The notes under the pieces: generated by a model
Seen by the model: the letters and a program-made list of their open reading frames with translations, nothing else
Databases searched by the model: none
Told to the model about the DNA's origin: nothing
Translations under genes and position numbers: made by a program
In this document: positions 28,737 through 49,699 of the stretch, in pieces
How positions within the stretch are numbered: the stretch's first letter is position 1
How the letters are laid out: each line of letters begins with the position of its first letter
Source: Candidatus Levyibacteriota bacterium
GTDB lineage: Bacteria; Patescibacteriota; Microgenomatia; Levybacterales; UBA12049
Direction of reading: 5' to 3'
Assembly: GCA_963716145.1 (NCBI GenBank)
Contig: OY970292.1
Coordinates: 822,528 to 886,527, forward strand
Length of the DNA stretch: 64,000 nucleotides

Positions 28737-29488
28737 ATGAAAAAATTAAAAACAATTAAAAAAAAACATTCCGGACGCGACGCAAGCGGACAGGTATCAG
28801 TTCGTCATCAGGGCGGACAACACAAGAGATTTGTCAGGAGCATTGATTTTAAAAGAGATAAATTTGATATAGTTGGGAAAGTTTTGGGGATTGAATATGA
28901 TCCAAATAGAACTTGTGACATTGCTCTGGTTCAATACACCGATGGAGATAAGCGCTATATGTTGGCTCCACATCGGATTAAAGATAAATGATACAATAGT
29001 GTCCGGCAAGAGTGTGGATGCGGTTTTGGGTAACTCGCTTCCTCTGTCAAACATTCCGCTCGGAACAATGGTTCACAATGTTGAACTAACACCAGGCAAG
29101 GGTGGACAAATCGCAAGGAGCGCCGGGACTGGAGCAATTGTTACAGCAAAAGAAGGCGATTTCGTACATCTGAAGATGCCCTCAGGTGAAATGAGGAAAG
29201 TCCGCGTTATGGCTCATGGCAACCGTCGGACAATTGGGAAATGAGGATTGGAAAAATGAGCAATTGGGAAAAGCAGGGAGAGCCCGAAATATGGGTAGAC
29301 GCCCGACCGTCCGGGGAGTAGCGCAAAACCCAAGATCTCATCCGCATGGAGGAGGAGAAGGACGATCTGGTATCGGTATGCCCGGGCCAAAGACTTTTGC
29401 AGGAAGAGCGGCTGTAGGTAACACTCGAAAAAAGAAAAAATATTCAGATAAATATATTTTAAAGAGAAGAAAGACTAAGAGAGGATAG
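28737..29488 (+). CDS. rplB: 50S ribosomal protein L2; split into three frames by indels
   Basis: fragments 28737..28991, 28873..29244 and 29216..29488 together read as uL2 (…[44 protein letters not shown]…[26 protein letters not shown]…). Confidence 0.85.
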
Positions 29489-29515
29489 TTCGACTAGCTC
29501 ACTATAAACAAAATT

Positions 29516-29801
29516 ATGGGAAGAAGTACAAAAAAAGGACCATACATAGACGCAAAATTAATGAAAAAGGTTATGCTGCAAAAAGCAGGCAGTAACCGCG
29601 ACGGAATAAAAACCTGGGCAAGAGCTTGCCAGATTCCACCTGAATTTGTGGGTCACACATTTATGGTGCACAACGGGAAAAATTTTATCAAAGTGCTATG
29701 TTAATGAAAATATGGTTGGTTCACGTCTTGGTGAATTCTCACCAACCCGGATGTTCCGAGGTCACGGAAAAGTTGTAGCACGAGAGATAAGTAAGACTTA
29801 A
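29516..29801 (+). CDS. rpsS: 30S ribosomal protein S19; frameshift near 29695
   Basis: [19 protein letters not shown]...HNGKNFIKV, then in +1 frame [31 protein letters not shown]. Confidence 0.85.
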
Positions 29802-29805
29802 AGAT

Positions 29806-30175
29806 ATGGAAGTTAGAGCAATAGCAAAATCAGTCAGAATGAGTCCAAGAAAAGTGAGGCTTGTTGCGGATGCGATAAGGCAGCTTTCAATTGAGCAAGC
29901 TTTTATCGTTCTTGAAGCCACACAAAATAGAGCGGCTGCACCACTTTCCAAAACGCTTCAAGAGCGCTGTTGCAAACGCAATTATGAATAACAATCTTGA
30001 CCGAGAAAATTTAATAATCGAAAGTATCATGGTGAATGAAGGGCAAGCCCTGAAAAGGTTTCACCCCAGTCACGAGGACGTGATACATCCTTACAAAAAA
30101 AAGAGCAGCCATATAACAATTGTTTTGAAAGAAAAAGCTGTTAAGAAGCCTGCGGTTCGTAAAAGCAGATTCTAA
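29806..30175 (+). CDS. rplV: 50S ribosomal protein L22; frameshift near 29940
   Basis: MEVRAIAKSVRMSPRKVRLVADAIRQLSIEQA..., continuing in another frame with ...IMNNNLDRENLIIESIMVNEGQALKRFHPSHEDVIHPYKKKSSHITIVLKE. Confidence 0.8.
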
Positions 30176-30240
30176 AAAAGCAGAAAAAGACGATAAAACA
30201 AGAAACAGTATTCGTTAAAACAGATAAGAAGAAAGGAGGG

Positions 30241-30317
30241 GGAAAATAAATTTCAAATATCAAATTTCAAATATCAAATTTCAAATAGATTTGATAGGAA
30301 ATTGGAAATTGGAAATT
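30241..30317. repeat. intergenic tandem repeats upstream of rpsC: (AAATTTCAAATATC)x2.7 and (GGAAATT)x4
   Basis: aaatttcaaatatcaaatttcaaatatcaaatttcaaatag ... ggaaattggaaattggaaattggaaatt, directly before RBS aggagg. Confidence 0.85.
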
Positions 30318-30339
30318 GGAAATTCTCCGAAGGAGGCAT

Positions 30340-30981
30340 ATGGGACAAAAAGTTAATCCACACGTTGTAAGACTTGGTAATGTGTTTAGCTGGGCAAGCC
30401 GATGGTTTGATGAGAGAAAGTACAAAGAAACTTTACTTCAGGATTTTACTCTTCGAAAATGCTGATGAATAAGTTAAGACCGGCAGGTATTGCAAAAGTT
30501 GAAATTGAGCGCTCAATTAACAGTCTGAAAATTATTATTTTTGTCTCACGTCCCGGAATTGTGATAGGCAGAGGCGGATCAGGTCTTGAAGATCTTAAGA
30601 AAAGCATAGTCAAGTTTTTCGCTAAGCAAACCGGTGCAAATATGTCGAAATTGGATATCCGGGTTGAGCCGGTAAAAGACCCGAATCTGGACGCATATCT
30701 TGTAGCGGTAAGTATTTCAGATCAGCTGATCAGAAGACTTCCGTATAAAAGAATTTTGCATCAACAGCCGAGCGTGTGATGAAAGCGGTGCAAAGGGTGT
30801 TAAGATTTTACTGACCGGAAGAATCGGCGGTTCTGAAATTGCGAGACGGGAGAAAATTCATTTCGGTACAGTCCCACTATCAACAATCCGAGAAAATATA
30901 AGTTACGTAAGCTATCCGTCATTAACAAAAAAGGGTTATATCGGGATTAAAGTTTGGATAAATAAACCAGAAGAAAAATAG
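30340..30981 (+). CDS. rpsC: 30S ribosomal protein S3; multiple frame interruptions
   Basis: ATG 30340 after aggagg; [23 protein letters not shown]...; KH-domain and C-terminal [12 protein letters not shown] pieces lie in different frames (ORF 30459..30779 is the middle part). Confidence 0.8.
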
Positions 30982-30982
30982 T

Positions 30983-31396
30983 ATGTTAATACCAAGAAGA
31001 CAAAAATACAGAAAACAGCAAAGAGGAAGCATGAAGGGGAACGCTAACCGCGGAATCAAGATTTCCTTTGGAGATTTCGGTTTGCAGACTTTGGAAATGG
31101 CTTGGATATCAGCACGTCAAATTGAAGCAGCCAGACGGGCAATTACCCACTATACCCAAAGAGGCGGACGTATCTGGATCAGAATTTTCCCTGACAAACC
31201 GATCAGTAAAAAACCGGCTGAGGTTAGAATGGGCGGAGGAAAAGGAGATACTCATGAATATGTTGCGCCGGTACGCCCAGGGCGAATCCTGTTTGAAATC
31301 GCAGGAGTAACACAGGAGGCAGCAAAAGAAGCACTGCGTTTGGCAGCTCACAAATTACCGGTTAAAACAAGATTTGTTTCAAAATCGGACAACTAA
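30983..31396 (+). CDS. rplP: 50S ribosomal protein L16
   Basis: 137 aa; [15 protein letters not shown]... typical uL16. Confidence 0.9.
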
Positions 31397-31399
31397 TAT

Positions 31400-31722
31400 A
31401 TGAAATTAAATATAAAAAAGAATTACACGCAAAATCTATAGCAGAGCTTAGTAAGCAGCTTAAAGAAGCACGCAGCGAGCAGCGCGTTTTAAAGCTTGAT
31501 AAAGAAATGGGAAAGCTCAAAAACACCAGCTCTCTTACGAGTAAAAGAGGAGAAATAGCTGTGATCAATACGATTATTAATGAGAAGTTGGCTGAAGCAA
31601 GAATTGTAGAAGTGGCTAAAGCAGATGATAAAAAAGAGGTTTCAGTAAAAGTTAAACCTGCTATTGAGGCTAAAGTGAGCAAGAAGGTTAAGGCTGTTAA
31701 AAAAGGAGGTAAAAGTGAGTAA
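31400..31722 (+). CDS. rpmC: 50S ribosomal protein L29 with Lys/Ala-rich C-terminal extension; frameshift in an A-run near 31415
   Basis: MKLNIKK then (frame +1) ELHAKSIAELSKQLKEARSEQRVLKLDKEMGKLKN... uL29 core; extension ...[24 protein letters not shown]. Confidence 0.7.
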
Positions 31723-31960
31723 AGTATTAACAGGAAAAGTGGTATCAGTCAAAATGCAGGATACAGTACTTGTTGAGGTGGTTAGAAGAACCCCTCACAA
31801 GCTCTATGGAAAGCTAATGAGAAGAAGTAAAAAATTTAAAGTGGCGGTTAATGGACAAAGTGTAGTTGTGGGTAGCCAGGTGAAAATTGAGGAAACAAAG
31901 CCAATGTCCAAAGATAAGCACTTTAAAGTGATTGAGATAATTAAGGAGCAAAAAGTATGA
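31715..31960 (+). CDS. rpsQ: 30S ribosomal protein S17
   Basis: 81 aa; [29 protein letters not shown] typical uS17. Confidence 0.9.
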
Positions 31961-32331
31961 TTCAGCAGAAAACTATTTTAGTTGCAGCAGATAATTCAGG
32001 CGCAAAGCAGCTGATTGTCATTCATATGTATGGTGGTTCAAAAAGAAAATTTGCCCGAATTGGGGACGTCATCCACTGTGTTGTAAAAGAAGCTGCGCCA
32101 AATGGGCAGGTTAAGGATAGTGAGATGGTAAAGGCAGTAGTTGTCAGAACCAGGAAAGAGTTTAGGCGCTCGGATGGTTCATATATCCGTTTTTCAGATA
32201 ATGCGGCGGTTGTTATTGATAATCCAAAAGATAAAAATGTAAGGGGAACAAGAATTTTTGGACCGATTGCAAGAGAAGTAAAAGACCGAGGATTTGCGAA
32301 AATTGCCAGTATGGCAACGGAGGTACTGTAA
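31957..32331 (+). CDS. rplN: 50S ribosomal protein L14
   Basis: 124 aa; [17 protein letters not shown]... Confidence 0.95.
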
Positions 32332-32332
32332 T

Positions 32333-32638
32333 ATGAAATTAATAAAAGGAGATTTAGTAAAAGTAACTAAAGGAAAAGACAGCGGTAAAACCGGAAAAGT
32401 CGAGCGGGTTTATGTCCTAACGAGTAAAGTCCTTGTTGAAGGAGTGAATCAATACAAAAGACATATTAAAGCAAAAACTCAAGGTCAGAAGTCAGAAATT
32501 GTTACTATCACCAAGCCTTTACCAGTTAGTAATGTTGCGCTGCTTTGTCCCAAATGTAAAAAGCAGACAAGAATTGGATACAAGATCCTAAAAGACGGCA
32601 AAGTGAGAATATGCAAGAAATGTAAAGCTCAAATATGA
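32333..32638 (+). CDS. rplX: 50S ribosomal protein L24 (KOW) with C-terminal CxxC...CxxC zinc-ribbon-like motif
   Basis: MKLIKGDLVKVTKGKDSGKTGKVERV... KOW domain; C-terminus LLCPKCKKQTRIGYKILKDGKVRICKKCKAQI. Confidence 0.85.
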   Translation: MKLIKGDLVKVTKGKDSGKTGKVERVYVLTSKVLVEGVNQYKRHIKAKTQGQKSEIVTITKPLPVSNVALLCPKCKKQTRIGYKILKDGKVRICKKCKAQI

Positions 32639-33189
32639 CAGATTTACAAAAAAAATATAAAGAGGAAATGATTCCGGAGTTACAAAAAAAGCTCAGTCTC
32701 AAGAACCCGATGAGTGTGCCAAGAATTGCAAAAATTGTTGTCAACATGGGTGTTAAAGACGCTGTGGCGGACAAAAAAAACATTGAAAAAATGGCCGCAA
32801 TTATGTCCCAAATTACCGGACAGAAAGCAAAAGTAACCAAAGCAAAAAAGGCAATCGCGACTTTTAAGCTTAGAATTGGGGATCCAATCGGACTGGTTGT
32901 TACCTTACGCGGTGCTAGGATGTATGATTTTTTTGATAAAATTGTCAAGGTTGTTCTTCCTCGTATTAAGGATTTTAGAGGAGTTAAGAGGACGAGTTTT
33001 GACAAAACAGGAAATTACACATTGGGTCTTTACGAATACTCGGTTTTTCCTGAGATTGATCCGGGAAGCGTTGAGAAGCTTCAGGGGATGGAAATTGTAA
33101 TCGTAACTAGTGCTAAAACCAATCAAGAATCACTTGCTCTTCTTGAGCAAATGGGAATGCCGTTTACGAAGGAAGCTGCTAAGCAGTAA
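32635..33189 (+). CDS. rplE: 50S ribosomal protein L5
   Basis: 184 aa; typical uL5. Confidence 0.95.
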   Translation: MTDLQKKYKEEMIPELQKKLSLKNPMSVPRIAKIVVNMGVKDAVADKKNIEKMAAIMSQITGQKAKVTKAKKAIATFKLRIGDPIGLVVTLRGARMYDFFDKIVKVVLPRIKDFRGVKRTSFDKTGNYTLGLYEYSVFPEIDPGSVEKLQGMEIVIVTSAKTNQESLALLEQMGMPFTKEAAKQ

Positions 33190-33338
33190 AATGAGCGTAA
33201 ATGTGGTATAATTCATGCGTAGAATTTTTAATTTGAAATTTTCAATTTTCATTGAAATCCAAAATGTTTAAAAATTTAAATTTAAAACATTAAATATTCA
33301 TTTCAAATTTTAAATTAAAAATTAAATCTTAATAAATT

Positions 33339-33524
33339 ATGGCTAAATTATCAAATGTAGTTCAAGCAAAGAAAAAGCAAAAATTCACGACTCGTGTGGT
33401 AAACAGGTGCGCAATTTGCGGCCGTTACAGGGGATACTTCCGCAGATTTGGATTATGCAGGATTTGTTTTAGAGAGAGGGCTTTGAAAGGAGAATTACCG
33501 GGTGTTCTTAAAGCAAGCTGGTAG
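33339..33524 (+). CDS. rpsN: 30S ribosomal protein S14 type Z (zinc-binding)
   Basis: 61 aa; [23 protein letters not shown]. Confidence 0.9.
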
Positions 33525-33539
33525 TTATAAATAAATATT

Positions 33540-33920
33540 ATGTATCACGATTTTGTTATTCAATTAAAAAATGCGGCAATGGCCCGAAAAAAAGATATCA
33601 CAGTGCCTTACGCTAATTTAAATAAAGCGATTGCCAAGGCATTGATAAAAGAAGGATTTCTGGAAACGGCCAAAGAAGAGACGGTTGATGGGAAAAAATT
33701 ACTCAGTATTCGTCTTCGTTATCAGAGTAGAAAGCCCGCGATTACTGATCTTGTTCTTATTTCAAAACCGTCACTTCGCAAATATGTAGGCGCTGCGGAG
33801 ATTGGAAGAATTCAGGGCAGGGCATCAACAGCAATAATTTCAACAAACATAGGTGTACTATCGGGGAAGGAGGCAATCAAAAAAGGAGCAGGAGGCGAGC
33901 TTCTTTTTAAGATTTGGTAA
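33540..33920 (+). CDS. rpsH: 30S ribosomal protein S8
   Basis: 126 aa; typical uS8. Confidence 0.9.
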   Translation: MYHDFVIQLKNAAMARKKDITVPYANLNKAIAKALIKEGFLETAKEETVDGKKLLSIRLRYQSRKPAITDLVLISKPSLRKYVGAAEIGRIQGRASTAIISTNIGVLSGKEAIKKGAGGELLFKIW

Positions 33921-33924
33921 AAAT

Positions 33925-34479: not shown

Positions 34480-34481
34480 TT

Positions 34482-34823: not shown

Positions 34824-35329
34824 TGAGACAACGATCTATGAACAGAATGCCCAATCAGCAAAGCGAGTTTGAGGAGCAAATTGTACAAATTAATAGGGTA
34901 TCTAAAAAAACAAAAGGTGGAAATAAGGTAGGCTTTTCAGCCCTTACTGTAGTAGGTGACCGAAAAGGAAAAGTCGGAGTTGGACTTGGCAAGGCGCCCG
35001 ACGTCGCCTCAGCAATCAGAAAGGGTATAAGTTATGCCAAAAAACATTTGGTTGAGGCACCGCTTGTAAATGGAACAATTCCATTTAGAATAGATATCAA
35101 ACTTGGCGCTGCAAGAATTATGCTCAAGCCTGCTCCTCACGGATCAGGTGTTATTGCAGGCGGTGCTGTCAGAAGTGTTGTAACGGCTGCGGGAATTGAG
35201 AACATCTCTTCAAAAGTTTTGGGTACAAGAAACAAAATAAGCAATATTTACGCAACTCTTGAAGCATTAAGAAGACTTAGTGAGCGCGGGACAAAGCAAA
35301 AAGATAGAAAATCCGCGATGAAGGGATAA
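34823..35329 (+). CDS. rpsE: 30S ribosomal protein S5
   Basis: 168 aa; dsRBD plus S5 C-terminal domain pattern. Confidence 0.9.
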   Translation: MRQRSMNRMPNQQSEFEEQIVQINRVSKKTKGGNKVGFSALTVVGDRKGKVGVGLGKAPDVASAIRKGISYAKKHLVEAPLVNGTIPFRIDIKLGAARIMLKPAPHGSGVIAGGAVRSVVTAAGIENISSKVLGTRNKISNIYATLEALRRLSERGTKQKDRKSAMKG

Positions 35330-35383
35330 CCCGTTCGGGACATTCGGCTGAGCTCAGTCGAAGTCCGGGCTCAGGATAAAAAT

Positions 35384-35821
35384 ATGAATTTAAGCAATCT
35401 TGAAAAAATAAAAGACAAAAAGAAAAAGCGAATCGGTCTTGGGCATGGATCGGGACGTGGAAAAACTGCAGGACGTGGGACAAAAGGTCAGAAAGCAAGA
35501 GGAGATGTGCCCTTGGATTTTGAAGGGGGAGCGCTTCCTCTTATCAAAAGACTTCCATTTTTGCGCGGAAAAGGAAAAAATAAATCATTTAAAAAAACAC
35601 CACTTGTTATTAATGTCAGTCTTTTAAGCAATTTTCCCAAGAACTCAGTTGTGGATATTGAGAGTCTGGTAAAACATAAACTGGTAAAGCAAGACAGTGT
35701 AAAGACAAATGGTGTTAAAATATTAGGTGATGGAGATTTGAGCGTCGCACTTACCGTTAAAGTTCCGGCGTCAAAAGGAGCAACTGAAAAAATCAAAAAA
35801 GCGGGCGGATCAGTAATTTAA
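35384..35821 (+). CDS. rplO: 50S ribosomal protein L15 (follows rpsE directly; no L30 gene)
   Basis: 145 aa; [23 protein letters not shown]. Confidence 0.9.
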
Positions 35822-37110
35822 TGGACAGTTTTATAAAAACTCTTCAAAGCAGCTTTAAGTCACCTGAGGTAAGAAAAAAAATCCTTTTCACTCTTGGGAT
35901 CTTCTTAGTATTTAGATTTTTAGCACACGTTCCTGTGGCCGGAGTCAACGTGGCACAGCTTAAAAATCTTTTTGCGGGCAATCAATTTTTGGGGCTTTTA
36001 GATATATTTTCAGGCGGAACCCTTGGTAACTTTTCAATAATGGCACTTGGTTTAAATCCGTATATCAACGCTTCAATCATACTCCAACTGCTGACAATGG
36101 TATTCCCAAAACTTGAAGAACTCTCAAAAGAAGGCGCATCAGGACAGCGCAAGATCAATCAGTACACCAGGTTTTTGACAATTCCGCTTGCGTCTTTGCA
36201 GGCAATTGGTATGTACGCACTCTTAAGAAGTCAGGGAATTATCGCAACACTGTCTCCTATTGCAACTATTTCATTCATCGTTACAATGGTAGCCGGTACT
36301 ATGTTTCTGGTTTGGCTTGGGGAACTTATTACCGAGCGCGGAGTGGGAAATGGTATTTCTCTTATGATTTTTGCCGGAATTGTAGGCCGCTTTCCTGTGC
36401 TCTTGGGGCAAACCCTTTCAACTGCCACACCTGAGTCGACCTCTAATATTATAACCTTTCTTGTGCTTGGGTTGGTAGTTATAGCGGCAGTAATTGTCAT
36501 GACTGAGGCAACGCGTCAGGTCACAGTTTTTTATGCCAAAAGAGTACGGGGAAATAAGATGCAAGGGGGAGAGTCAACTCATCTGCCGCTTCGCTTAAAT
36601 CAAGCAGGAGTAATTCCGATCATTTTTGCAGTCTCCATTGTACTTCTACCCTCCCTTCTTGCTAATTTTTTTCAAGCTTCAAAAAACCCTGTACTTTCAG
36701 GTTTTGCGCAAAACGTAAGTATTTGGTTTGCTCCGTCCAGTATTGCCTACAATTTGTTATATTTTCTTTTGGTTGTTGGGTTCACTTTTTTCTATACGGC
36801 AATTGTTTTTAACCCCAAAAAGATTTCAGAGGAAATACAAAAACACGGCGGTTTTATACCAGGAATCAGGCCCGGTACGCCCACTACCAAATACCTCAAT
36901 TATATTTTAACCAGAATTACGCTGGTTGGCGCCAGCTTTTTGGGACTCGTCGCGATATTGCCTGAATTGGCGCGTGTTATAACCGGTGTTCAGACGCTTC
37001 TTCTTGGAGGAACAAGTATTTTGATTGTTGTCAGTGTTGTTCTTGAGACTTTTAAAAAAATTGAGGCAAACCTTGTAATGCGTAATTACGAAAGTTTCCT
37101 TAACAAATAA
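35821..37110 (+). CDS. secY: preprotein translocase subunit SecY
   Basis: 429 aa, 10 TM helices, typical N-terminus. Confidence 0.95.
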
Positions 37111-37134
37111 TCCTTCGACAAGCTCAGGATAAAT

Positions 37135-37683
37135 ATGAAGATAATTTTATTAGGTGTACAGGGATCCGGTAAATCAACTCAAGGAAATCTTCTTTCAACT
37201 TTTTTTAATGTTCCCTATCTTTCAACCGGCCAAATTTTTCGCCAACTTGCAAAAGAAGATACCTCAATAGGACGTGAGATAAAAGAGCTAATGACTAAAG
37301 GCTACCTTATTCCTGATGACAAAACACTTGAAATAGTCACAGATTATTTAACACGCCTTGCGTATCAAAAGGGATTTATTCTTGATGGTTATCCGCGCAA
37401 TCTTGCACAGGCAGAATCATTTCCAACAGCAATTGATAAAGTCGTGTACATAAATGTTTCTGATAAAGAAGCAAGACGGAGAATTGAAGGAAGAAATGTT
37501 GATAAAGCCCAAGTGCGCCCGGATGATACACCAGAGGCAATTACAAGAAGGATTGATATTTTTCATAAATCTACAAAACCGCTTCTGGAATACTACAAAA
37601 ATAAAGGAATGTTAATTGAGGTAAACGGAGAACAAGAGGTTTCGGAAATTCACAAAGAGATAATTGATAAACTTAAAAAATAA
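37135..37683 (+). CDS. adk: adenylate kinase (short form)
   Basis: 182 aa; MKIILLGVQGSGKSTQG P-loop. Confidence 0.9.
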   Translation: MKIILLGVQGSGKSTQGNLLSTFFNVPYLSTGQIFRQLAKEDTSIGREIKELMTKGYLIPDDKTLEIVTDYLTRLAYQKGFILDGYPRNLAQAESFPTAIDKVVYINVSDKEARRRIEGRNVDKAQVRPDDTPEAITRRIDIFHKSTKPLLEYYKNKGMLIEVNGEQEVSEIHKEIIDKLKK

Positions 37684-38387
37684 TGTCAAAAGGATTTGTA
37701 ATCGCAATAGATGGACCGGTTGCCTCAGGTAAGGGAACAATTGCTCAAAAACTCGCAAAAGAATTAAGCGGGTTTTATCTTTACACAGGAGCAATGTATA
37801 GGTGTATTGCTCTTTTGGTTATTGAAAGAGGACTTAACTTAGAAAATGAGCAGGAAGTTGAATCTGTTTTGCCAGAGCTAAATATTGAATTTGTTGAGGA
37901 TGCGATTTTATTAAACGGCAAAGATGTAACTGAGAGAATAAAAAATTCTGATACCGCAAGCGGTGCATCAAAAGTCGGGGTTTTTCCAAATGTCAGACAA
38001 TTTGTTGATAAAAACCTTAGAATTATAGCGGAAAAGATAAGTTCAGAAGGTAAAATAGTTGTATCTGAGGGAAGAGATACAGCTACAACGATATTTCCAA
38101 ATGCTCCAATTAAAATATATTTAACAGCAAGGGATGAGATTAGAGCAATGCGTCGGATGGAGCAGTTTGTAAATCAGGAAAAAAATCTTGATCAAGAACT
38201 TGAAAGATTAAAAACTAGGGATAAAAGAGATACGGAGAGAGAAGCCAGTCCTCTACCAAGTAATCCTGAAAGTCTTGGATATTTTGTTTTGGATAACTCG
38301 GATCTGAGTGAGGAACAAACACTGGACGTGATAAATAAAGAGTTGGTAAATAAAGGATTGATAGATCCTGAATCGAGTTCAGGATGA
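37683..38387 (+). CDS. cmk: cytidylate kinase
   Basis: 234 aa; IAIDGPVASGKGT. Confidence 0.85.
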   Translation: MSKGFVIAIDGPVASGKGTIAQKLAKELSGFYLYTGAMYRCIALLVIERGLNLENEQEVESVLPELNIEFVEDAILLNGKDVTERIKNSDTASGASKVGVFPNVRQFVDKNLRIIAEKISSEGKIVVSEGRDTATTIFPNAPIKIYLTARDEIRAMRRMEQFVNQEKNLDQELERLKTRDKRDTEREASPLPSNPESLGYFVLDNSDLSEEQTLDVINKELVNKGLIDPESSSG

Positions 38388-38396
38388 CATAAATAT

Positions 38397-39185
38397 ATGA
38401 TTAATATTAAAACAAACCAAGAAGTAGAAATAATGCAAATAGGCGGGCGGATTTTGGCTGAGACGCTGTCTGAAGTTATGGATTCAATAAAATCGGGCGT
38501 TACCGAGTTGGAACTTGATCAGTTAGCCGAGAAGTTAATAAGGGAAAAAGGTGGAGAACCAGGGTTTAAAAAAGTAAAAGGATATCATCACACAATTTGT
38601 ATGTCTACAAATGATGCAGTTGTTCATGGAATTCCAGGGAGCTATGAGTTTAAAGAAGGAGATGTTGTAGGGGTTGACTGTGGCGTTTTTTATAAGGGAT
38701 TTCATACGGATATGGCAGAAACTAAAATAGTTCAAAGTTCATCCATTCGGCAAGCTCAGGACGCGAAGTTCAAAGTTCAAAGTTCGGTTGAAAAGTTTTT
38801 GGAAGTTGGGAAACAAGCATTGGAAGAAGGTATTAAGCAAGCTGTTGTTGGTAATAGGGTTGGGCATATTTCAAAAACAATTCAGGATATTGTTGAAAAA
38901 GAGGCTGGATATTCAGTTGTCAGAAGTTTAATAGGGCACGGTGTTGGGCGGGAACTTCATGAAGAACCGGAAGTGCCAGGATATTTGGTGGGTAAAATTG
39001 AGAAAACACCGTTCTTGAGAGAAGGTATGACAATTGCTATCGAAGTGATTTATAACATGGGTTCAAAAGATGTTGTTTTGGATCATGACGGCTGGACAAT
39101 TCGCTCAAAAGACGGCAGTCTGGCGGGATTATTTGAGCGGTCAATCGCCATCACACAATCAGGTCCAATTGTATTAACAAGCTGA
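38397..39185 (+). CDS. map: methionine aminopeptidase type I, carrying a 15-codon in-frame insertion (38743-38787)
   Basis: 262 aa; metal ligands D..D..H..E..E in order (VDCGVFYKGFHTD, GHGVGRELHEEP, IAIEV). Confidence 0.9.
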   Translation: MINIKTNQEVEIMQIGGRILAETLSEVMDSIKSGVTELELDQLAEKLIREKGGEPGFKKVKGYHHTICMSTNDAVVHGIPGSYEFKEGDVVGVDCGVFYKGFHTDMAETKIVQSSSIRQAQDAKFKVQSSVEKFLEVGKQALEEGIKQAVVGNRVGHISKTIQDIVEKEAGYSVVRSLIGHGVGRELHEEPEVPGYLVGKIEKTPFLREGMTIAIEVIYNMGSKDVVLDHDGWTIRSKDGSLAGLFERSIAITQSGPIVLTS

Positions 39186-40030: not shown

Positions 40031-40033
40031 ACT

Positions 40034-40468: not shown

Positions 40469-40471
40469 AAT

Positions 40472-41077: not shown

Positions 41078-41098
41078 TGGTACAATAGGTAGATTGTT

Positions 41099-42025: not shown

Positions 42026-42158
42026 GTAAGTCCTAAATTCTAATATCGAAATACTAAACAAATCCAAATTCTAAAATTAAATAAAGTTTTAGATTTGTAA
42101 TTAGGATTTTAAAAATTGTTTAGGATTTGGAATTTAGTGTTTGGGATTTTTATTTATT

Positions 42159-42740
42159 ATGAAGAAGCATGTTTTCGGCCGAAAATTTAAGAGAGACGCC
42201 AATGAGCGAAAAGCCTTATTTAAAAACCTGCTTACATCTCTTGTTTTGGAAGAACGCATCAAGACAACCGAGGCAAAAGCAAAGGCTATCAAGGGTGCAG
42301 CGGATAAGTTAATCACAAAAGCCAAAAAAGAGGGAGTTAATGTTTACAAAAGTCTGCACCCAGACATAAATCAGGAGGCAGTCCTTAAATTAATGTCCGA
42401 GATTGCCCCGCGTTTTGCAGGAAGACAGGGAGGATATACTAGAATTATAAAGGTTGGGAAAAGACGCGTCGCGGACAACGCGGAAATGGTGTATTTGGAG
42501 TGGACGGAACGGAGTTCAGAAGTAAGAGTTAAGAATTCAGAATTGCCGAAAAAAGCTAAGAAAAACAAGCCGGCTTCGTCAAAGAAAGCTACGGAAAAGG
42601 TTAAGAAGGTAACTAAAATAGAAGCGCCCGCGCCAAACGCGGTTATTGCAAAACCTGTAATAGGTAAAAAAGTTGAGGAAAAAGTTCAAAAGCAAGGAAT
42701 ATTCAAAAGGTTGGTAACAAGACAGAAAAAAGGACAATAG
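42159..42740 (+). CDS. rplQ: 50S ribosomal protein L17 with Lys-rich C-terminal extension
   Basis: MKKHVFGRKFKRDANERKALFKNLLTSLVLEERIKTT... Confidence 0.85.
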   Translation: MKKHVFGRKFKRDANERKALFKNLLTSLVLEERIKTTEAKAKAIKGAADKLITKAKKEGVNVYKSLHPDINQEAVLKLMSEIAPRFAGRQGGYTRIIKVGKRRVADNAEMVYLEWTERSSEVRVKNSELPKKAKKNKPASSKKATEKVKKVTKIEAPAPNAVIAKPVIGKKVEEKVQKQGIFKRLVTRQKKGQ

Positions 42741-42766
42741 TTCGGCAAGCTCACTATAAATAAAAT

Positions 42767-43207
42767 ATGAATCAAGCAAGTATAACAACAGCTACAAAAG
42801 TATCGGATATTAAGCGTTCATGGCACTTTGTTGATGTAAAAGGTAAGGTGTTAGGGCGTATTTCGACCGACATAGCAAAGCTTTTGATGGGCAAGAACGA
42901 AGCCTATTTTGTACGCAATCTTGATTGCGGAAATTTTGTGGTGGTTGTCAACGCAAAGGACATTAAAGTAACAGGCAACAAAGAAGAACAGAAAAATTAT
43001 TACAGACACTCAGGATATCCGGGAGGTTTTAGGCAGGAGACACTTCAGGAACTAAGAGTGCGAAAGCCTGAAGAAATTGTAATTCGTGCCGTAAAAGGAA
43101 TGCTTCCGCAAAACAAATTGCGAGACAAAATGCTAAAAAGACTTTTTGTTTTTGCAGGCGAAGAACACAAGTATGCTGATAAATTTGGAAAAAACGTATC
43201 AGCATAA
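42767..43207 (+). CDS. rplM: 50S ribosomal protein L13
   Basis: 146 aa typical uL13. Confidence 0.9.
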   Translation: MNQASITTATKVSDIKRSWHFVDVKGKVLGRISTDIAKLLMGKNEAYFVRNLDCGNFVVVVNAKDIKVTGNKEEQKNYYRHSGYPGGFRQETLQELRVRKPEEIVIRAVKGMLPQNKLRDKMLKRLFVFAGEEHKYADKFGKNVSA

Positions 43208-43275
43208 TTTTCAATTTGAAATTTTCAATTTTCAGTGAATTTTTCAAATTAAGAATTAAAAATTAAATTAATACT

Positions 43276-43761: not shown

Positions 43762-43779
43762 GAAAGATTTTTGAAACTT

Positions 43780-44970
43780 CTAGTGCCCCGGCTTAATTGA
43801 CATTGCAGCCCCAATAACTAAAGCCCCGGCAAGAGCTGCAAGAAGCGCGGCAAGGCCCAAAGGTGCACCTCCGACGATAGCACTGCCTTTGAGAGCCTTG
43901 AGAGTATTTGTTTTCCATCTTGCTCTTTCTTCAGCATCCATGCCTTTAGTCTGTTCCTCAAGCATTTTGTCAACAATACCGCTTAGATCGCCTTTACGGA
44001 CTGATTCCAATAAGGCTTGGGCTGCTTCTGAGTCAAACTCACCGTTTTGTATTTGGTCAAATAAGCCATCAAAAGGTGTTTCTCCTTTTGCTTCAGCTTC
44101 AGAAAATAGCTTATAGGCATTGCCCAAAACTGCTTGCTCAGCTTGTGCTGCTTCCAGCCTTTGTTGAGCTGTAGCATTATTGTTATCAATCTTTAATGTT
44201 GCTTCTAGATTCGCGATCTCGGCACTAAGCTTATCGGATTGTTGAGCAAACGCTTCTTTACTTCCGCCGAGAACCGTTACTGCTTCCTGAAAATCATCTT
44301 TTGTCAGGACAACTTTTCCATCCAAGTTTTCTAACAATTTTGTTGCTTGAGGTGAACGGGTTGTTTCGTCAGGAGAGATGGAGCTTATAAGAGATCTGAT
44401 ATCATCAGCTGTGGGGATGCGGTTCTTGGCAGCATTTTCTATCGCCGGATCAAGACTTTCATCCATATCCCGATTGCCCATACAAGCTTGGAATACCTGC
44501 TGACTGTCTTCGCCTACAAAAAGTTTTGCATATGTATTCAGCTCTGCCTGCATTTGAAGACCAAGGACCTCTTCTCTAGTATAGGCAAGTTTTAGGCGTG
44601 CATCGCCTTGTTCATCTTTACCTGCGCTATCCTCAAGCACCTCTCCATCCTTATCTTCAAAGTAACATAGCAGTTGACCATCAGGTGTAACACCTGCAAT
44701 ACCAGCTAAGCGGATTTCTCCTTCCGGAAATTCCTGGTCTTTGCCACCCCTATCTTGTCTTATGACTGCCGGCATCATTACGTCATGTCCATCGCCGGTT
44801 GCTTTGGGAAATTTTCTTGCAAATGGCTGATCGCCGTCATTCTCACCAGTAAGCAATGCGTGAGATATGGCAAGCGCAGATTCCTCAGCAGTTTTTGCGG
44901 ATTTAATCTCCCCTTTATCACCGATTAGCCTTTTGCGGTGTTCTGACATAAGAATCGACTTAACCAACAT
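43780..44970 (-). CDS. hypothetical tail-anchored protein (acidic, Ala/Glu/Gln-rich coiled-coil, C-terminal TM); may extend upstream to 45262 across poly-T/A indels
   Basis: 396 aa; C-terminus GSAIVGGAPLGLAALLAALAGALVIGAAMSI; upstream ORF 45056..45262 (MSAPGTAATETPGMNADELAAAKSFDAKKKGPKLKKKEKAKRKK) in another frame through T9/T10 runs; G+C visibly higher than flanks. Confidence 0.5.
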   Translation of the reverse strand: MLVKSILMSEHRKRLIGDKGEIKSAKTAEESALAISHALLTGENDGDQPFARKFPKATGDGHDVMMPAVIRQDRGGKDQEFPEGEIRLAGIAGVTPDGQLLCYFEDKDGEVLEDSAGKDEQGDARLKLAYTREEVLGLQMQAELNTYAKLFVGEDSQQVFQACMGNRDMDESLDPAIENAAKNRIPTADDIRSLISSISPDETTRSPQATKLLENLDGKVVLTKDDFQEAVTVLGGSKEAFAQQSDKLSAEIANLEATLKIDNNNATAQQRLEAAQAEQAVLGNAYKLFSEAEAKGETPFDGLFDQIQNGEFDSEAAQALLESVRKGDLSGIVDKMLEEQTKGMDAEERARWKTNTLKALKGSAIVGGAPLGLAALLAALAGALVIGAAMSIKPGH

Positions 44971-45316
44971 GGCTGCTTCTGTACCTCTTCTTTCAGCTGT
45001 CCTAGGAGTTCTTTCAGCTGTCTCCTCTTCTGTATCGCTGTAGCCTGCGCCTCTGTCAAGGTAGCAGCGGTTGCTGGATCTGGGGAGGGGGCATCTGCAG
45101 GTCTGCTAGCATCACTCCTAGTAGGTGGCCCTTTTTTCTTTTCGCCTTTTCCTTTTTTTTCAGTTTTGGGCCTTTTTTTTTGGCATCAAAGCTTTTGGCT
45201 GCAGCCAATTCGTCTGCGTTCATACCGGGTGTTTCTGTTGCTGCTGTTCCTGGTGCTGACATATTACTACTATCATAGTTGAAACTTTACCACCGATCAA
45301 GTATGATTTTAAGTAT

Positions 45317-48300
45317 ATGCTTGCAATGGAAAGCGGAGATAGTGGTGGCGGAAAATTGGGGCGGGCCACCGAACGGGCCAAAACTGCCATCAAATCAAAG
45401 TTTAGTAATAAATCTGATGCAGCTCCAAGTGATGCTCCAAAGCACCCGGCTCTTAATACAATTAAAGAGAGAATATCTCCTTTTTTACTCAGGGAGCAAA
45501 CAGGAACAGGTGAAACAACTCTTGATTGGCAGGGACGGGAAGTGCAAATTAAAGAGCGGACCGGCTCTATTGATCCCGAATTGGTCACTGATTTTTCTAA
45601 AAGCCTGAAAGGCGACCTGGAAAGATTGATGGATATTCAGCAAAATACACCGGACGTCTTTGATAGATTGATTAACGACCCGCATTTTCGCCCGTATAGA
45701 GATCTTTTTGATAAATATACAAGGCTTAAAGAAGGCTCAGCTGCGGTAGGCGGGCACGCGATCAGGGAATTTGATTCAACATCGTTTGATGACTACATGG
45801 GGACTGATGCTGGATTCGCGACTGCTTTTGAAATGCGGAAATTAAAACTTCAGGATATGGCAACCAACGCCGCGGTGTTTCTTGATGACAATCTTCCCAC
45901 GACAAATCCTGAGGAAATTGAAGAACAGGATGTCAATACAGGACCGGGAGGTAAGGCTAGGGAAATAGGTAGAAAGGTTGGGCATTTTTTTCAAGAACCG
46001 CGTACCAGATACGGACGAAAAATACCTATAGATTTGGGTATTACGACTCTGGACTCAAAAGGAGATATAGCAGCGGTCATAACTGCTGCAAGTACTTTCC
46101 TTGGGGGGTTGGGAGCACTGGGTGGCGGTCCCGTAGGAGGATTGATTGGAGCTGGTATTCCACCGGCTGTTGTGGGGGTAATACACGCCTTTCATAGGGG
46201 GGAGAGGGTTACTGTTGAGCAAGCAAGAGCCGCTTTACGTATTGCCCGAGCAACGGATCCTGTAAGACGGGAATGGGCCCGTGAGATGTATAACGTAGAC
46301 TCAAGCAATCTTGGAATTGATAACAACGGAAATGTAGTTATACGCCCAGGTATCAGAAATAACAGGCAGCTTGCCAGTCCGGCAAAACAGAGTGAGGTTT
46401 TGCGCGATATTTTGGTTCGGGAAAATGCACAAATCATGAAAGCTCAGGAAGCGATGGGTATACGCCGGGAACAACGCGGTGGAATGGATTTGGTGGGATT
46501 GACTCGCCCCGGGCGGAATGAGCAATTTGCCCAACGCGATATACCTATTGAGATAAGTGTACAGCGCGAATTTAAGCGGGACCCTAGGTTAGTTGATAGA
46601 AATGGTAACACCTGCCAATTTCAAAATGCACAAGGTGAGTGGGTGGATAACGCCAATTTTAATTGGCGGAATACAAACCGATTAGCAGCATGGGATCTGC
46701 GTCAAGAAATTCACAGAAGGCTCCTTTCAGAAAAGATAACAGGAGACTTTAATGATATTGCTGAATGGGGCAAAAATCACAATACGGATTTAGGCAGCGC
46801 AATCACAAAAGCAAAAGAGCGCGGACCATTGATACTTACGGAAAGAAAAGCGGCATTAAATGAGCAAGACCGGAATCTTACCGAGGATCAGCGTCGCTTA
46901 AGAGCAGAAATTCCGCCTTTTACAGAGCTGGATACTGTCTTAACTCAAGTAGCTGCTGCCAGAAGAGCTGCTGAACAGGCAAGGAGAAATGTTACACGGG
47001 TAACCGCTCACCCAACTGGATTAACTGATGAATTATCGCTTTTAACTCAAGTATTAAATGATGTTCCAGCAGGCGGAGCTGCTCCGTTTGAACTGGATGT
47101 TATGCATGAGGGGGTTCGCCTACGCATTACCAGTATTGCCGGAAGAGAAGCTGAAGCATTGAGGACTTACCAGAACGCAGTTAATACAATTTCCGGATCT
47201 GTGCCTACAGGAAAAGGAGCTGACCAAATTATCACTGCAAGACTAAAAATTGCTAAGGATATTTACGATCAGCAGATGATTCCAATTAATAGAGACAAAA
47301 CAGCTGTCACCGCAGCCCGGCAGGCCATAGATGCTGCAAATACCGCAGCGCGTGAAGTATTTAATAGGTTTAATACTCTTGATGCGCAAAGAGAAGCTAC
47401 AGCAACTACATCAACAGAGATGCAGACCGCAAGAACAACTATCGAAGGATGGACCACTCCCGGAGTTGCTGATTTAAGTACAGCAGAGTTACAAAATCAA
47501 TCTTTCGATGAGCTCTTGACCCGCATAAATGCGGTAAATGCAGGGGGTGGGGGTGGCTGGCCGGAAGCTGAGAATGATACTCCTGAGAACAGAGAACGTC
47601 TGGTACGTGCGATGGCTGAAGCAAGAGCTATAGCATTAGAGCCACGCGTGGCGACACCAAGCGCCAATTTCGAGGATGCGATTAATCCCAATGGTTTTGC
47701 ATTGCTCGAAACAGATTTGTTGACAAGATCATCTGAGGATATAAGAAATATAATGGCTGATTTGATTGCAAGGGCTCCAGCTGGATCACCTCTTAACGGT
47801 TTGGTCATTCCTGCGAATGCAATAGATCAAATAAATGAGATCAAAAATGAAGCACAAGCCCGCTTTACAGCCCGCTTAAGAGCCATGCAGGCACTTGACA
47901 GAGAGATTACCAGCAGAAAAACGATAATCGAAGGCCAGAAAACGCGTATTGATAGAGAGGGTATTCAAACTCCCGAACTTGATGCTATAGAGAGAGCATA
48001 TCCGCTGGTAGATGATATCAGGAGCACTATTGATGCTATGACTGTTGTACCGCGGCTTGTTGAGTTCCTTGATACAGCGCAGGCAGCCACCCAAGCCCGT
48101 TATTTACCTGAGGAGCAAGCAAATAACCATTCAATAGCCTATGCCAATATAATGGAGTTGATTTTTAATCACCGCGATGATAATGATGCGAAGGTCGGTA
48201 CAGTAACCGGTAGGGCAGTTGCTTTTGAAAGAAACAGTAATTTCCTGACAGAAGATGTGCTCCGAGATCTGCTGGTACAGCAGTTTAATTTAGTAGGTCC

Positions 48301-48472
48301 TCCTCTTCCAGCTGGAGTCGTTGGTCCGCCAGCCACTCCGACATTTGAGCAGGCAATAGATCAATTGCGTAACGAAATCCAAGCCGGAAACATACCAAAA
48401 GGGCAGTTCGCGCAATTCCTGACAGAAAACGTCATATATGGATATATGGAACCGCTTGTACCGGTGTTATAA
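45317..48472 (+). CDS. giant hypothetical protein (1051 aa), Ala/Arg/Gly/Thr-rich, mostly helical with one Gly-rich hydrophobic segment
   Basis: no recognisable catalytic motif; GLGALGGGPVGGLIGAGIPPAVVGVIHAF at about 270-300; codon and amino-acid usage unlike host genes (sampled G+C about 50-58 percent). Confidence 0.6.
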   Translation: MLAMESGDSGGGKLGRATERAKTAIKSKFSNKSDAAPSDAPKHPALNTIKERISPFLLREQTGTGETTLDWQGREVQIKERTGSIDPELVTDFSKSLKGDLERLMDIQQNTPDVFDRLINDPHFRPYRDLFDKYTRLKEGSAAVGGHAIREFDSTSFDDYMGTDAGFATAFEMRKLKLQDMATNAAVFLDDNLPTTNPEEIEEQDVNTGPGGKAREIGRKVGHFFQEPRTRYGRKIPIDLGITTLDSKGDIAAVITAASTFLGGLGALGGGPVGGLIGAGIPPAVVGVIHAFHRGERVTVEQARAALRIARATDPVRREWAREMYNVDSSNLGIDNNGNVVIRPGIRNNRQLASPAKQSEVLRDILVRENAQIMKAQEAMGIRREQRGGMDLVGLTRPGRNEQFAQRDIPIEISVQREFKRDPRLVDRNGNTCQFQNAQGEWVDNANFNWRNTNRLAAWDLRQEIHRRLLSEKITGDFNDIAEWGKNHNTDLGSAITKAKERGPLILTERKAALNEQDRNLTEDQRRLRAEIPPFTELDTVLTQVAAARRAAEQARRNVTRVTAHPTGLTDELSLLTQVLNDVPAGGAAPFELDVMHEGVRLRITSIAGREAEALRTYQNAVNTISGSVPTGKGADQIITARLKIAKDIYDQQMIPINRDKTAVTAARQAIDAANTAAREVFNRFNTLDAQREATATTSTEMQTARTTIEGWTTPGVADLSTAELQNQSFDELLTRINAVNAGGGGGWPEAENDTPENRERLVRAMAEARAIALEPRVATPSANFEDAINPNGFALLETDLLTRSSEDIRNIMADLIARAPAGSPLNGLVIPANAIDQINEIKNEAQARFTARLRAMQALDREITSRKTIIEGQKTRIDREGIQTPELDAIERAYPLVDDIRSTIDAMTVVPRLVEFLDTAQAATQARYLPEEQANNHSIAYANIMELIFNHRDDNDAKVGTVTGRAVAFERNSNFLTEDVLRDLLVQQFNLVGPPLPAGVVGPPATPTFEQAIDQLRNEIQAGNIPKGQFAQFLTENVIYGYMEPLVPVL

Positions 48473-48478
48473 TAAATT

Positions 48479-48832
48479 ATGAACGCATTAGATATTATCA
48501 AGGCATTACCAATCGATGAGGTAGTAAAGACCAAAATCTTGAATAATTATGATTCTTTTACTGTGGCTCAGAAATCCGCAACCGATCATCTAGCATGGAC
48601 CACCTATGACGCTTTATATGAGGAGAGGCTTAGGAAAAATTTGGGAGTCCAGTATGATAACGTAGAACAAGGAGGAGAGAAATTTGGCAACGACTTTTAT
48701 AAAAGAGCACTTAAAAAAACGGAACGTGAAATGACAACTGAATTTAAGGAATCTGTTTCCAAGCATGATCTTTCTGCTGCGAGGAAGGCAATGGAAATAA
48801 TTGTTCGGGAAATTCAAGTCGCAAAAAAATAA
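48479..48832 (+). CDS. hypothetical protein (117 aa), operon partner of the giant protein
   Basis: starts 7 nt after the stop of 45317..48472. Confidence 0.4.
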   Translation: MNALDIIKALPIDEVVKTKILNNYDSFTVAQKSATDHLAWTTYDALYEERLRKNLGVQYDNVEQGGEKFGNDFYKRALKKTEREMTTEFKESVSKHDLSAARKAMEIIVREIQVAKK

Positions 48833-48850
48833 TTGGTTAGCTTATTTCTG

Positions 48851-49618
48851 CTACTGGTCCTCAATTCTTCCAATCTCTCTTACTTCTCTGATAGTTTCCT
48901 CGGGCTTGAGTTTGGTTGTATCGATGTTCTCACCTCTATAGAGGAGTAACATACCTTCAATGATTTCCTTGGCCTTTAGGGCATCAGCACGCCAGAGATG
49001 AGATACAAAGACCTTTTTAACCTTGAGCGGATGCGGTCCGTAATCAATGATCAGCTTTGCCATAAAAAGTGCTGTGTGAACCCGCACATCCATAATCTCT
49101 TTAAGCATAATGCTTGTCATGGCTTCCGTAGCAAAGAAACTCTTCAGGGTTATATCCACTTTGTTGGCGTCAATTGTCACGGTGTCGGGGAAAAAGTCAA
49201 AAGGAAAAACAGTTTTGGCTCTGAAAAGTATTTTATCAGCCCGCGATACGAGTATATCGAGCTCTTTTTTAGCTTGCTGTGAATCATCAGTTTCATTGGG
49301 TTCATTTTGTTGGTCACTTTCAGATTTACCGCTATCAGCTTTCTTCTGCTTTTTCTTTGATCCGCCGTCCATACCGCTTCTTTCAGAAGGTGTCATATAG
49401 GGATCTTCAGCTAGCATCTCGGCTCTTTTTGCAAGAGTCTCATCGCTTCGTTTCTCTTTGTAGCCTTTTTTAGTACCATTACCAGATTTTTTATCGGGAG
49501 GGCTGGGAGATTTTCTCCGAGCAGGTTGTTGTCGGCGTTTTGCGCCGTTTTGAAAAATTGGTGCTGCTGCCTCATCAAAAAGTATATTATTATCATTCAT
49601 GACTCCTAAGTATAGCAA
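48851..49618 (-). CDS. hypothetical protein with basic disordered N-terminus and conserved-looking C-terminal domain
   Basis: 255 aa; Lys/Ser-rich N-terminal 120 aa. Confidence 0.45.
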   Translation of the reverse strand: MLYLGVMNDNNILFDEAAAPIFQNGAKRRQQPARRKSPSPPDKKSGNGTKKGYKEKRSDETLAKRAEMLAEDPYMTPSERSGMDGGSKKKQKKADSGKSESDQQNEPNETDDSQQAKKELDILVSRADKILFRAKTVFPFDFFPDTVTIDANKVDITLKSFFATEAMTSIMLKEIMDVRVHTALFMAKLIIDYGPHPLKVKKVFVSHLWRADALKAKEIIEGMLLLYRGENIDTTKLKPEETIREVREIGRIEDQ

Positions 49619-49699
49619 TTTGAAGCAAAGAATTGAATAGAGATCGGTAAGAGAACTATAAGATAAAAGTTAGTTTCCTTCGACAGGCTCAGGACTTAG

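Follow-up and report, generated by a model that had tools for sequence, protein, structure and literature searches.

A degenerate 13-base motif, TTCGRCWRGCTCA, recurs in a 64-kb stretch of a Levybacteria genome (contig OY970292.1, positions 822,528 to 886,527 of the forward strand; hereafter the window, with positions counted from its first base). The element that carries the motif stands just before the start codons of rpsS, rplO, adk and rplM. Our analysis indicates that the motif is probably the constant loop of a mobile hairpin repeat of about 24 bases, non-autonomous and resembling the repetitive extragenic palindromic (REP) elements, and not a dedicated regulatory site. Comparison of the sequence with that of relatives suggests that the copies in this genome were inserted recently, between stop and start codons and, in two genes, in frame. 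A tiny repeat element had been among the guesses of a first-pass annotation of the window, and it is this guess that our data support: the copies are lineage-specific insertions of a widespread interspersed family.

Number of Copies in the Window

A scan of both strands of the window with the degenerate 13-mer gave six exact matches, at 29489, 37114, 38746, 42741 and 49679 on the plus strand and at 4356 on the minus strand; allowing one mismatch in the scan added no further match. In 100 dinucleotide-preserving shuffles, again with one mismatch allowed, the mean number of matches was 0.48, and none of the 100 attained six. We also trained a covariance model on copies from relatives and ran it on the window, where it returned the same seven loci (six simple copies and a composite before rplO) and nothing else convincing. 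A weak match of this model at 50338–50362 was inspected and found to be no copy. The six copies listed in the first-pass annotation all exist where it had placed them, although it had missed the minus-strand copy at 4356 and the rplO site proved to be composite.

The density of the element is 0.11 per kb in the window and 0.036 per kb in the relatives, in which we found 51 copies in 1.4 Mb from 80 genomes. The distribution among these genomes is patchy, the majority having no copy.

A Conserved Loop Closed by a Covarying Stem

Each copy is a short covarying stem that closes a conserved loop of 13–14 bases, TTCGRC-N2-3-GCTCA. The sequences that follow the loop compensate those that precede it: ATCC is answered by GGAT at 37114, ATAG by CTAT at 29489 and 42741, and TCC by GGA at 4356, 38746 and 49679. 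The GGAT and CTATAAA endings noted in the first-pass annotation are therefore present, not as alternative tails of one motif but as the 3' strand of a stem, changing in step with the four bases upstream of the motif.

To describe the stem without presupposing it, 59 copies from the window and the 80 related genomes were selected by the loop alone, with the stems unconstrained. In 53 of them at least three consecutive Watson-Crick pairs close the loop, sometimes past one unpaired purine. In an alignment of 34 copies from bacteria of the candidate phyla radiation (CPR), the three innermost positions were paired in 100%, 88% and 100% of the copies, with 8, 12 and 9 double-sided changes, respectively. 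The covariation score of this alignment was 0.47, a value attained by none of 500 shuffles, and partner columns that had been slid gave 0.06–0.18. The stems seen include ATAG, ATCC, ACCC, ATGC, GTGG and others.

The unit thus begins with a stem half of 3–8 bases, which one purine may follow; after the loop come the second, complementary half of the stem and a short 3' tail rich in purines. In the AT-rich CPR genomes this tail is YAAR, and in bacteria of high GC content it is GAACGG. Two of the related or motif-bearing loci that were compared with the window, and that are labeled here by L-numbers, hold tandem arrays without spacers, each with four copies at a period of 24 bases (L188, 20747–20842; L322, 1583–1680). 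Because the tandem period is 24 bases and the net insertion sizes are 20–24 bases, we take the unit to be about 24 bases long including the 3' tail. A 22-base duplication in L317 compared with L241 gives a degenerate second copy directly before rplO.

A second scan of IMG/VR, in which the stem was left free and the GAACGG tail was fixed, provided a GC-rich set of 146 distinct copies with at least seven stem types. At least three of the four closing pairs are formed in 137 of the 146, and all four are formed in 82, whereas shuffles gave 27 at most. At the outermost closing position, 37 of the 146 have A opposite C (ACCC/GGGC, ATGG/CCAC, ATCC/GGAC) and none has G opposite T; this A-C mismatch would be a G-T wobble on the complementary strand only. 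Since the GAACGG tail mostly has no 5' partner, the unit is polar.

The simple copies have folding energies of –2 to –3 kcal/mol, and their z-scores relative to shuffled sequence are non-significant. Only two copies of the window are stable as RNA, the composite (–21.2 kcal/mol, z = –2.6) and the copy on the minus strand (–12.8 kcal/mol).

Filled and Empty Sites among Relatives

All five copies in the ribosomal gene cluster are insertions of 20–39 bases that are filled in the window and empty in most close relatives. Retrieval of sequences by SecY placed the window in Candidatus Levyibacteriota, among the CPR Microgenomates. The closest relatives used for alignment were L122 and L123 (93–94% SecY identity), together with L124–L127. 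Between rplB and rpsS, a net insertion of 20 bases is present in the window only, and L122–L126 have GGACAAAAATAATATG. Between rplQ and rplM, an insertion of ∼20–23 bases is likewise confined to the window, L123 and L124 having CAATAG|ATTATG. The composite between rpsE and rplO corresponds to a simple single hairpin in L122 and to no element in L123–L126. Between secY and adk the insertion measures 23 bases; L122 holds a decayed copy, TTCGACAAATCCAGGA, whereas L123–L127 lack it (L123–L128 have AAATAAtATG). The copy in map is an in-frame insertion of ∼24 bases that is found in the window only and is absent from L122–L127.

Further filled/empty pairs were found by searching for virtual empty sites. 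L172 and L162 form such a pair, their flanks being 96% identical and their lengths differing by a net 24 bases, and L124 differs from L125 by 24 bases in frame, which adds SIRQAQDK to a C-terminal tail. Some junctions are hotspots that have been entered independently in other genomes, in both orientations and by more than one stem subfamily. At the junction of secY and adk, 7 of 81 genomes carry a copy, three of them in the forward and four in the reversed orientation; that of the genes for S8 and L6 carries one in 5 of 72, always in gene orientation and with two stem types. Outside the latter count, L151 has a reversed copy at a TGG-TAA junction (the empty relative has TGG TAA AAAT ATG), which from its flanking sequence alone looks like the S8|L6 junction.

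Other palindromic repeats, unrelated to the element, 50–60 bases long and of the type CTAGGGATTAGTGGTTAGG...CTAAAACCTAAAACC, were seen in spacers of the same operon in relatives, namely at rpsS|rplV in L122, at SecY|adk, L23|L2 and S5|L15 in L135, and at rplQ|rplM in L125. Invasion of spacers by small repeats therefore seems to be common in Levybacteria.

The Seven Copies of the Window

Pfam domains at the sites confirmed the gene names given in the first-pass annotation (rpsS, rplO, adk, rplM and map): the C-terminus of L2 is followed by S19, S5 by L15, SecY by Adk and L17 by L13, and the remaining gene encodes an M24 methionine aminopeptidase. The four copies before rpsS, rplO, adk and rplM end 14, 6, 8 and 13 bases from the ATG, respectively.

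The copy between rplB and rpsS (29485–29515, plus strand) reads ATAG-TTCGACTAGCTCA-CTAT with the tail AAACAAAATT, and the rpsS ATG follows at 29516; the TAG within its 5' stem half now serves as the stop codon of rplB. The copy between rplQ and rplM (42737–42766, plus strand) is built in the same way, with ATAG-TTCGGCAAGCTCA-CTAT, then AAATAAAAT and the rplM ATG at 42767, and here the TAG is the stop codon of rplQ. These two copies, counted from 29489 and 42741, are identical at 27 of 30 bases, tails included, which suggests that they derive from a common source.

The copy between secY and adk (37110–37134, plus strand), (TA)A-TCC-TTCGACAAGCTCA-GGA-TAAAT, gave the best match to the covariance model (39 bits). 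It is followed by the adk ATG at 37135 and places a Shine-Dalgarno-like AGGA 5 bases 5' of it.

The composite between rpsE and rplO (35330–35377, both strands; rplO ATG at 35384) reads CCC-G-TTCGG[GACATTCGGCTGAGCTCAGTCGAAGTC]CGGGCTCA-GGAT. Its inner palindrome of 27 bases (35339–35365) contains one copy on each strand, the two being overlapping, inverted and joined at a common GAGCTC center. This inner pair is nested in the split loop of an outer copy, whose loop becomes TTCGGCGGGCTCA when the palindrome is excised, and the covariance model matches the site on both strands. A composite of the same type is carried by L151 at another junction.

Two copies lie inside genes. The one at 4344–4375 (minus strand) reads CGCATCC-TTCGACAAGCTCA-GGAC-AGGATGCG, with its loop at 4356–4368 and the closing stem (A)TCC/GGA; an alternative outer stem of 8 bp is formed by CGCATCCT/AGGATGCG. 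It is in frame within the linker of the open reading frame (ORF) 3444–4757 on the minus strand, in which PrgI and CarboxypepD_reg domains flank the linker in Pfam, and it is translated as ...KPHPSTSSGQDAHS.... The other, at 38742–38762 (plus strand), lies in frame in map, reads TCC-A-TTCGGCAAGCTCA-GGAC and is translated as ...SSIRQAQDAK.... The two are translated in different frames, giving STSSG in the PrgI-like protein and RQAQD in the map product.

The map copy is surrounded by a patch of heptanucleotide repeats (AGTTCAA). These heptamers stand in tandem at 38729–38790, at a surface insertion point, and at the same site L122–L127 have about four copies each of a differing heptamer (TTCAAAG, TCAAAAG, AACCAAG, GCAAAAA), so that the patch is a hypervariable 7-base repeat within an essential gene.

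The seventh copy (49676–49694, plus strand), TCC-TTCGACAGGCTCA-GGA, lies between two minus-strand genes and is antisense to both. One is a PD-(D/E)XK nuclease gene (49700–50524) and the other an ORF without assigned function (48851–49618).

Placement at Stop/Start Junctions

The native junctions of the operon, as seen in 81 Levybacteria-type loci, are overlaps of the TAAtATG type with 1–10 bases from stop to start. An insertion that spares both genes must therefore end directly before the start codon. The stem halves often contain the stop codon in use, which is TAG in ATAG, TGA in ATGACCC, or a TAA that abuts TCC or CCC, and where the element is reversed, the stem shares bases with the downstream ATG (CT-ATG). 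In the TCC/GGA subfamily an AGGA lies 5–7 bases 5' of the ATG at adk and rplO.

The exact ATAG..CTAT 21-mer was searched for in metagenomes, and at least 120 loci were found in groundwater and other metagenomes, this subfamily being abundant in the Hainich groundwater series; the counts of orientation and tail given here and below are among the matches listed. In sense copies the upstream stop codon falls within the 5' stem half or beside it, at a median of 1 base from the loop, and the start codon is found 7–25 bases past the loop, and about half of these copies show AAAT(AA) followed by an ATG within ∼12 bases. A random distribution of the motif relative to genes, which the first-pass annotation had named as the outcome that would speak against its proposal, was not what we found: the placement is strongly non-random. 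One metagenomic copy (L224, ∼1664–1714) immediately follows the 3' CCA with which a tRNA gene ends (...GGTTCAAATCCCGCTCCTGCTACC-ATAG-loop-CTAT).

Distribution beyond CPR Bacteria

A first scan of IMG/VR with the TCC/GGA form matched at least 120 contigs with GC contents of 41–70%. Among the matches listed, many contigs hold 2–6 copies, and these are often inverted pairs 40–80 bases apart that fold to long hairpins. Such inverted doublets are common in the GC-rich form (L035, L099, L050 and Comamonas L202); in the window only the composite at 35330–35377 is of this kind. One of the IMG/VR contigs is a bona fide phage, with doublets between the terminase and portal genes. BLAST searches of plasmids gave matches at 17 places on one 650-kb replicon of Comamonas, up to 12 in Sphingobium, and others in Novosphingobium, Methylobacterium, Rhizobium and Moraxella osloensis, nearly always in unannotated spacers. 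Translations of the GC-rich form (PFVLSLSKGE, RPELVEG, LRQAQDER, FDKLRTNG) resemble strings that occur in spurious hypothetical proteins.

No copy of the element was found in 5,426 Escherichia coli genomes or in the cultured-phage records of INPHARED. At the gathering threshold, Rfam matched only five tRNAs in the window and no ribosomal-protein leader; 14 GC-rich loci gave no Rfam match, and permissive scans gave generic miRNA-hairpin matches only. A literature search with the DNA and RNA 13-mers and with the six-frame peptide strings returned no relevant paper, and a separate search by concept turned up no description of palindromic repeats in CPR bacteria.

Several resemblances were set aside. 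A sigma-70 or leaderless promoter and a likeness to the T7 promoter (CTCACTATA) were rejected because the TATA amounts to no more than the CTAT half of the stem in one subfamily and stands at a variable distance from the ATG. Likenesses to tRNA T- and D-loops, tmRNA, RNase P RNA and segments of 16S/23S rRNA were dropped, as they are short and have no support from any covariance model.

Weighing of the Mobile-Repeat Reading and Its Alternatives

If the element is a mobile repeat, a single-stranded hairpin unit would be copied to new sites by an enzyme encoded elsewhere, in the way that REP and REPIN units rely on a separate transposase. The position before start codons would then reflect survival and not purpose, since an insertion would persist only if it fell precisely in the gap from stop to start or in a linker that the protein can spare. 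The stems may contribute to this harmlessness by bringing their own stop codon and, in the TCC/GGA subfamily, an AGGA at Shine-Dalgarno distance as well. Each such insertion would turn a tightly coupled gene pair into a pair about 25 bases apart. Tiny spacers together with purifying selection can explain most of the positional bias. It also speaks for this reading that the copies lack nearby coding capacity: no transposase was found close to them, and neither transposases nor insertion sequences (IS) are enriched there.

Several observations weigh against this reading. At S5|L15, five diverged orthologous copies (L157, L238, L241, L276, L317) keep the constant loop positions. Inspection of 13 filled/empty pairs for a target-site duplication revealed no single rule, TAA...TAA and TA...TA flanks being ambiguous as duplications because the stems are palindromic, and some of the pairs resemble replacement of a spacer more than a clean insertion. 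The searches brought to light no mobilizing enzyme and no related IS; moreover, a stem of 3–4 bp is short for the known hairpin-recognizing transposases. ATAG..CTAT copies between co-directional genes in metagenomes are sense in 78 cases and antisense in 28, and the AAAT tail is present in 48 of 99 sense copies and absent from the most frequent antisense tails (42 copies). The sense bias and the sense-only A-rich tail are only partly explained by tiny spacers and purifying selection, and could reflect a function at the RNA level. Lastly, a selfish element does not by itself account for the same 11 loop positions in organisms from CPR bacteria to Proteobacteria.

All copies may belong to a single cross-phylum family, in which a conserved enzyme acting on single-stranded nucleic acid would recognize the invariant loop together with the polar 3' tail; we put this forward tentatively and consider it doubtful. 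If it is true, the mobilization would be unlike that of the REP-associated tyrosine transposases (RAYTs) and REPs, in that a unit of 20–24 bases is placed at stop/start junctions and in frame, and the activity would be present in CPR bacteria, in Proteobacteria and in their phages. The searches for an enzyme gave the following results. When the ORFs near 240 loci were clustered, the only groups to emerge were housekeeping genes and phage structural or gene transfer agent-like genes. No RAYT was found among the ∼50 ORFs of the window, and tblastn with E. coli RayT gave no match in motif-bearing plasmids. A RAYT of Chloroflexota is flanked by classic GTAG REPs, and the motif is not among these flanks.

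The positional pattern is also what a functional intercistronic RNA module would show, that is, a module whose loop is bound by a factor or by the ribosome, which sets re-initiation, processing or stability, and which spreads because it is useful. The stop codon within or beside the 5' stem half, the start 7–25 bases past the loop, the ∼3:1 excess of sense over antisense copies, the restriction of the A-rich tail to sense copies, the AGGA at Shine-Dalgarno distance in the TCC/GGA subfamily and the intact loop at the five diverged S5|L15 orthologs all speak for it. However, most sister genomes have the same junctions without the element. The same spacer tolerates a reversed element, and hence another loop sequence in the RNA, and in L122 the secY|adk copy has decayed while both genes persist. 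Other copies lie antisense (49679), are translated in differing frames within genes, or occupy spacers of phages and plasmids from unrelated phyla; the folding energy of the simple copies is negligible and no Rfam family corresponds to the element. Of the RNA-processing or translational-coupling signal proposed in the first-pass annotation, what holds is the positional bias, whereas the use of either orientation in one spacer, the decayed copies and the weak folding do not agree with it, and we regard a module of this kind as unlikely. A ribosomal-protein autoregulatory operator, also proposed there, or a promoter, including one for leaderless transcripts based on the TATAAA of the CTATAAA variant, could be read from the four copies of the S10-spc-alpha cluster that closely precede rpsS, rplO, adk and rplM, and from the resemblance of TATAAA to a –10 element. 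We give this explanation hardly any credence: the sites are not known operator positions, and the presence or absence of the element at the same junctions, which are empty in most sister genomes, contradicts it. The element also occurs in non-ribosomal contexts (in the gene for the PrgI-like type IV secretion protein, beside the nuclease gene, on phage contigs and on proteobacterial plasmids), TATA is the CTAT stem half of one subfamily, at 1 to >12 bases from the ATG, no –35 element is present at sigma-70 spacing, as the annotation had correctly observed, and no ribosomal leader was matched in Rfam.

A site that acts as DNA, in uptake (by analogy with the DNA uptake sequences and uptake signal sequences, DUS/USS), in recombination or in chromosome organization, would be in line with the strand of the copies. 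Five of the six simple copies are on the plus strand, the GC skew is positive across the whole window, and the copy at 49679 is on the plus strand even though it lies amid minus-strand genes; inverted pairs also recall the pairing of Neisseria uptake sequences, and CPR bacteria depend on imported DNA. Yet the density is low and patchy (0.11 per kb in the window, 0.036 in relatives and zero in most of them), and the copies arise as ∼24-base insertions, not by point mutation. Variable but complementary flanks point to a folded single strand over a duplex binding site, and the same sequence is found in unrelated phyla, unlike lineage-specific uptake signals. A DNA-acting site is thus improbable in our judgment, and the mobile hairpin repeat remains the reading that we prefer.

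Gene Context of the Window

The operon is intact at 35–43 kb. At 28737–30200, rplB, rpsS and rplV are broken by single-base insertions relative to L122 and L123 (at about 28971, 29215, 29698, 29960, 30083 and 30158), rplB being split into three ORFs and rpsS ending after 62 residues, and the tuf ORF (25017–25760) is without its C-terminal domain. The breaks and the short tuf look like assembly or sequencing indel errors; pseudogenes are less likely. There is no L30 gene between rpsE and rplO (35329–35384), as is usual in CPR bacteria, and a cytidylate kinase gene (37683–38387) lies between adk and map.

A type IV secretion-like cluster occupies 561–5143 and comprises a TraG/VirB4-like P-loop ATPase (561–2708), the PrgI-CarboxypepD_reg fusion (3444–4757) and a type IV secretion system pilin (4817–5143); a second gene for such a pilin lies at 50536–50982. 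Three large ORFs at 45317–48472, 52995–56210 and 56216–58084 (1051, 1071 and 622 residues, respectively) gave no match in Pfam. Five tRNA genes are clustered at 58150–60523 (Ser-GGA, Arg-CCG, Ser-CGA, Arg-GCG and Ser-TGA).

Implications

CPR genomes are ∼1 Mb in size and highly streamlined, and are usually considered to contain little mobile DNA. In this one, stop/start overlaps of the best-conserved operon have been interrupted time and again by a 24-base element, which has also added eight-residue segments to essential proteins. Such insertions indicate that selfish repeats, active now or until recently, are present even in CPR genomes and alter the coupling of translation between genes. The constant loop with its free stem, together with the same loop on plasmids of Proteobacteria and on phage contigs, points to recognition outside the described REP superfamilies. 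The element also mimics conserved upstream motifs, which annotation pipelines and motif scans may misread as regulatory, and it yields spurious short ORFs and peptide repeats (RQAQD, STSSG, FDKLR). Sphingobium, Comamonas and Moraxella osloensis are culturable carriers, in which the mechanism is open to experiment.

Comparison with Known Elements

The closest known class is REP/REPIN. REP superfamilies are GTAG- and CGTC-tagged, the CGTC type having no associated transposase, and REP families keep a stem of 5–13 bp and the terminal GTAG or CGTC tag, with mostly short loops (Di Nocera et al. 2013, PMC3733652). The element shares with REP/REPIN units the short length (20–40 bases), the hairpin, the interspersed, mostly extragenic and occasionally intragenic occurrence and the non-autonomous state; both occur singly, in clusters and in head-to-head or tail-to-tail dimers with long hairpins. 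It differs in having a constant loop of 13–14 bases and a short variable stem, and no GTAG or CGTC tag was found abutting the stems in the copies examined. In addition, a REP family is typically confined to one genus or order, whereas the loop described here is shared by organisms from CPR bacteria to Proteobacteria.

Like the Rickettsia palindromic elements, the copies in map and in the PrgI-like gene are palindromes in frame that add a short peptide while the protein survives; the Rickettsia elements, however, are ∼100–150 bases long and lineage-restricted, and the element described here has ∼24 bases (8 codons) and is mostly intercistronic. Miniature inverted-repeat transposable elements (Correia, Nezha, ERIC/IRU) are likewise non-autonomous and patchy among relatives and may supply or alter expression signals at junctions. 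They measure 50–500 bases, end in terminal inverted repeats of 10 bases or more, clearly duplicate their target and have a recognizable parent IS. None of these traits was seen here, the inverted flanks being 3–8 bases long. DUS/USS occur at about one copy per kb, are lineage-specific and arise by substitution in genes and spacers alike, in contrast to the 0.04–0.11 per kb, the ∼24-base insertions and the cross-phylum occurrence observed here. Intrinsic terminators, which have a stable GC-rich stem and then a run of T, do not correspond either to stems of 3–4 bp that fold at –2 to –3 kcal/mol and have A-rich tails inside operons.

Hairpins read by HUH enzymes, such as the nonanucleotide loop of geminiviruses and circoviruses and the ends of IS200/IS605, resemble the element in their constant loop, free stem and polar single-stranded DNA. 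Those hairpins are single sites beside the gene for the enzyme, whereas here dozens of 24-base copies are dispersed and no HUH gene is linked to them; the comparison suggests a mechanism and makes no claim of membership. From this likeness to the HUH-read hairpins, in which the loop is likewise conserved and the stem free, we infer that the unit may be mobilized as single-stranded DNA.

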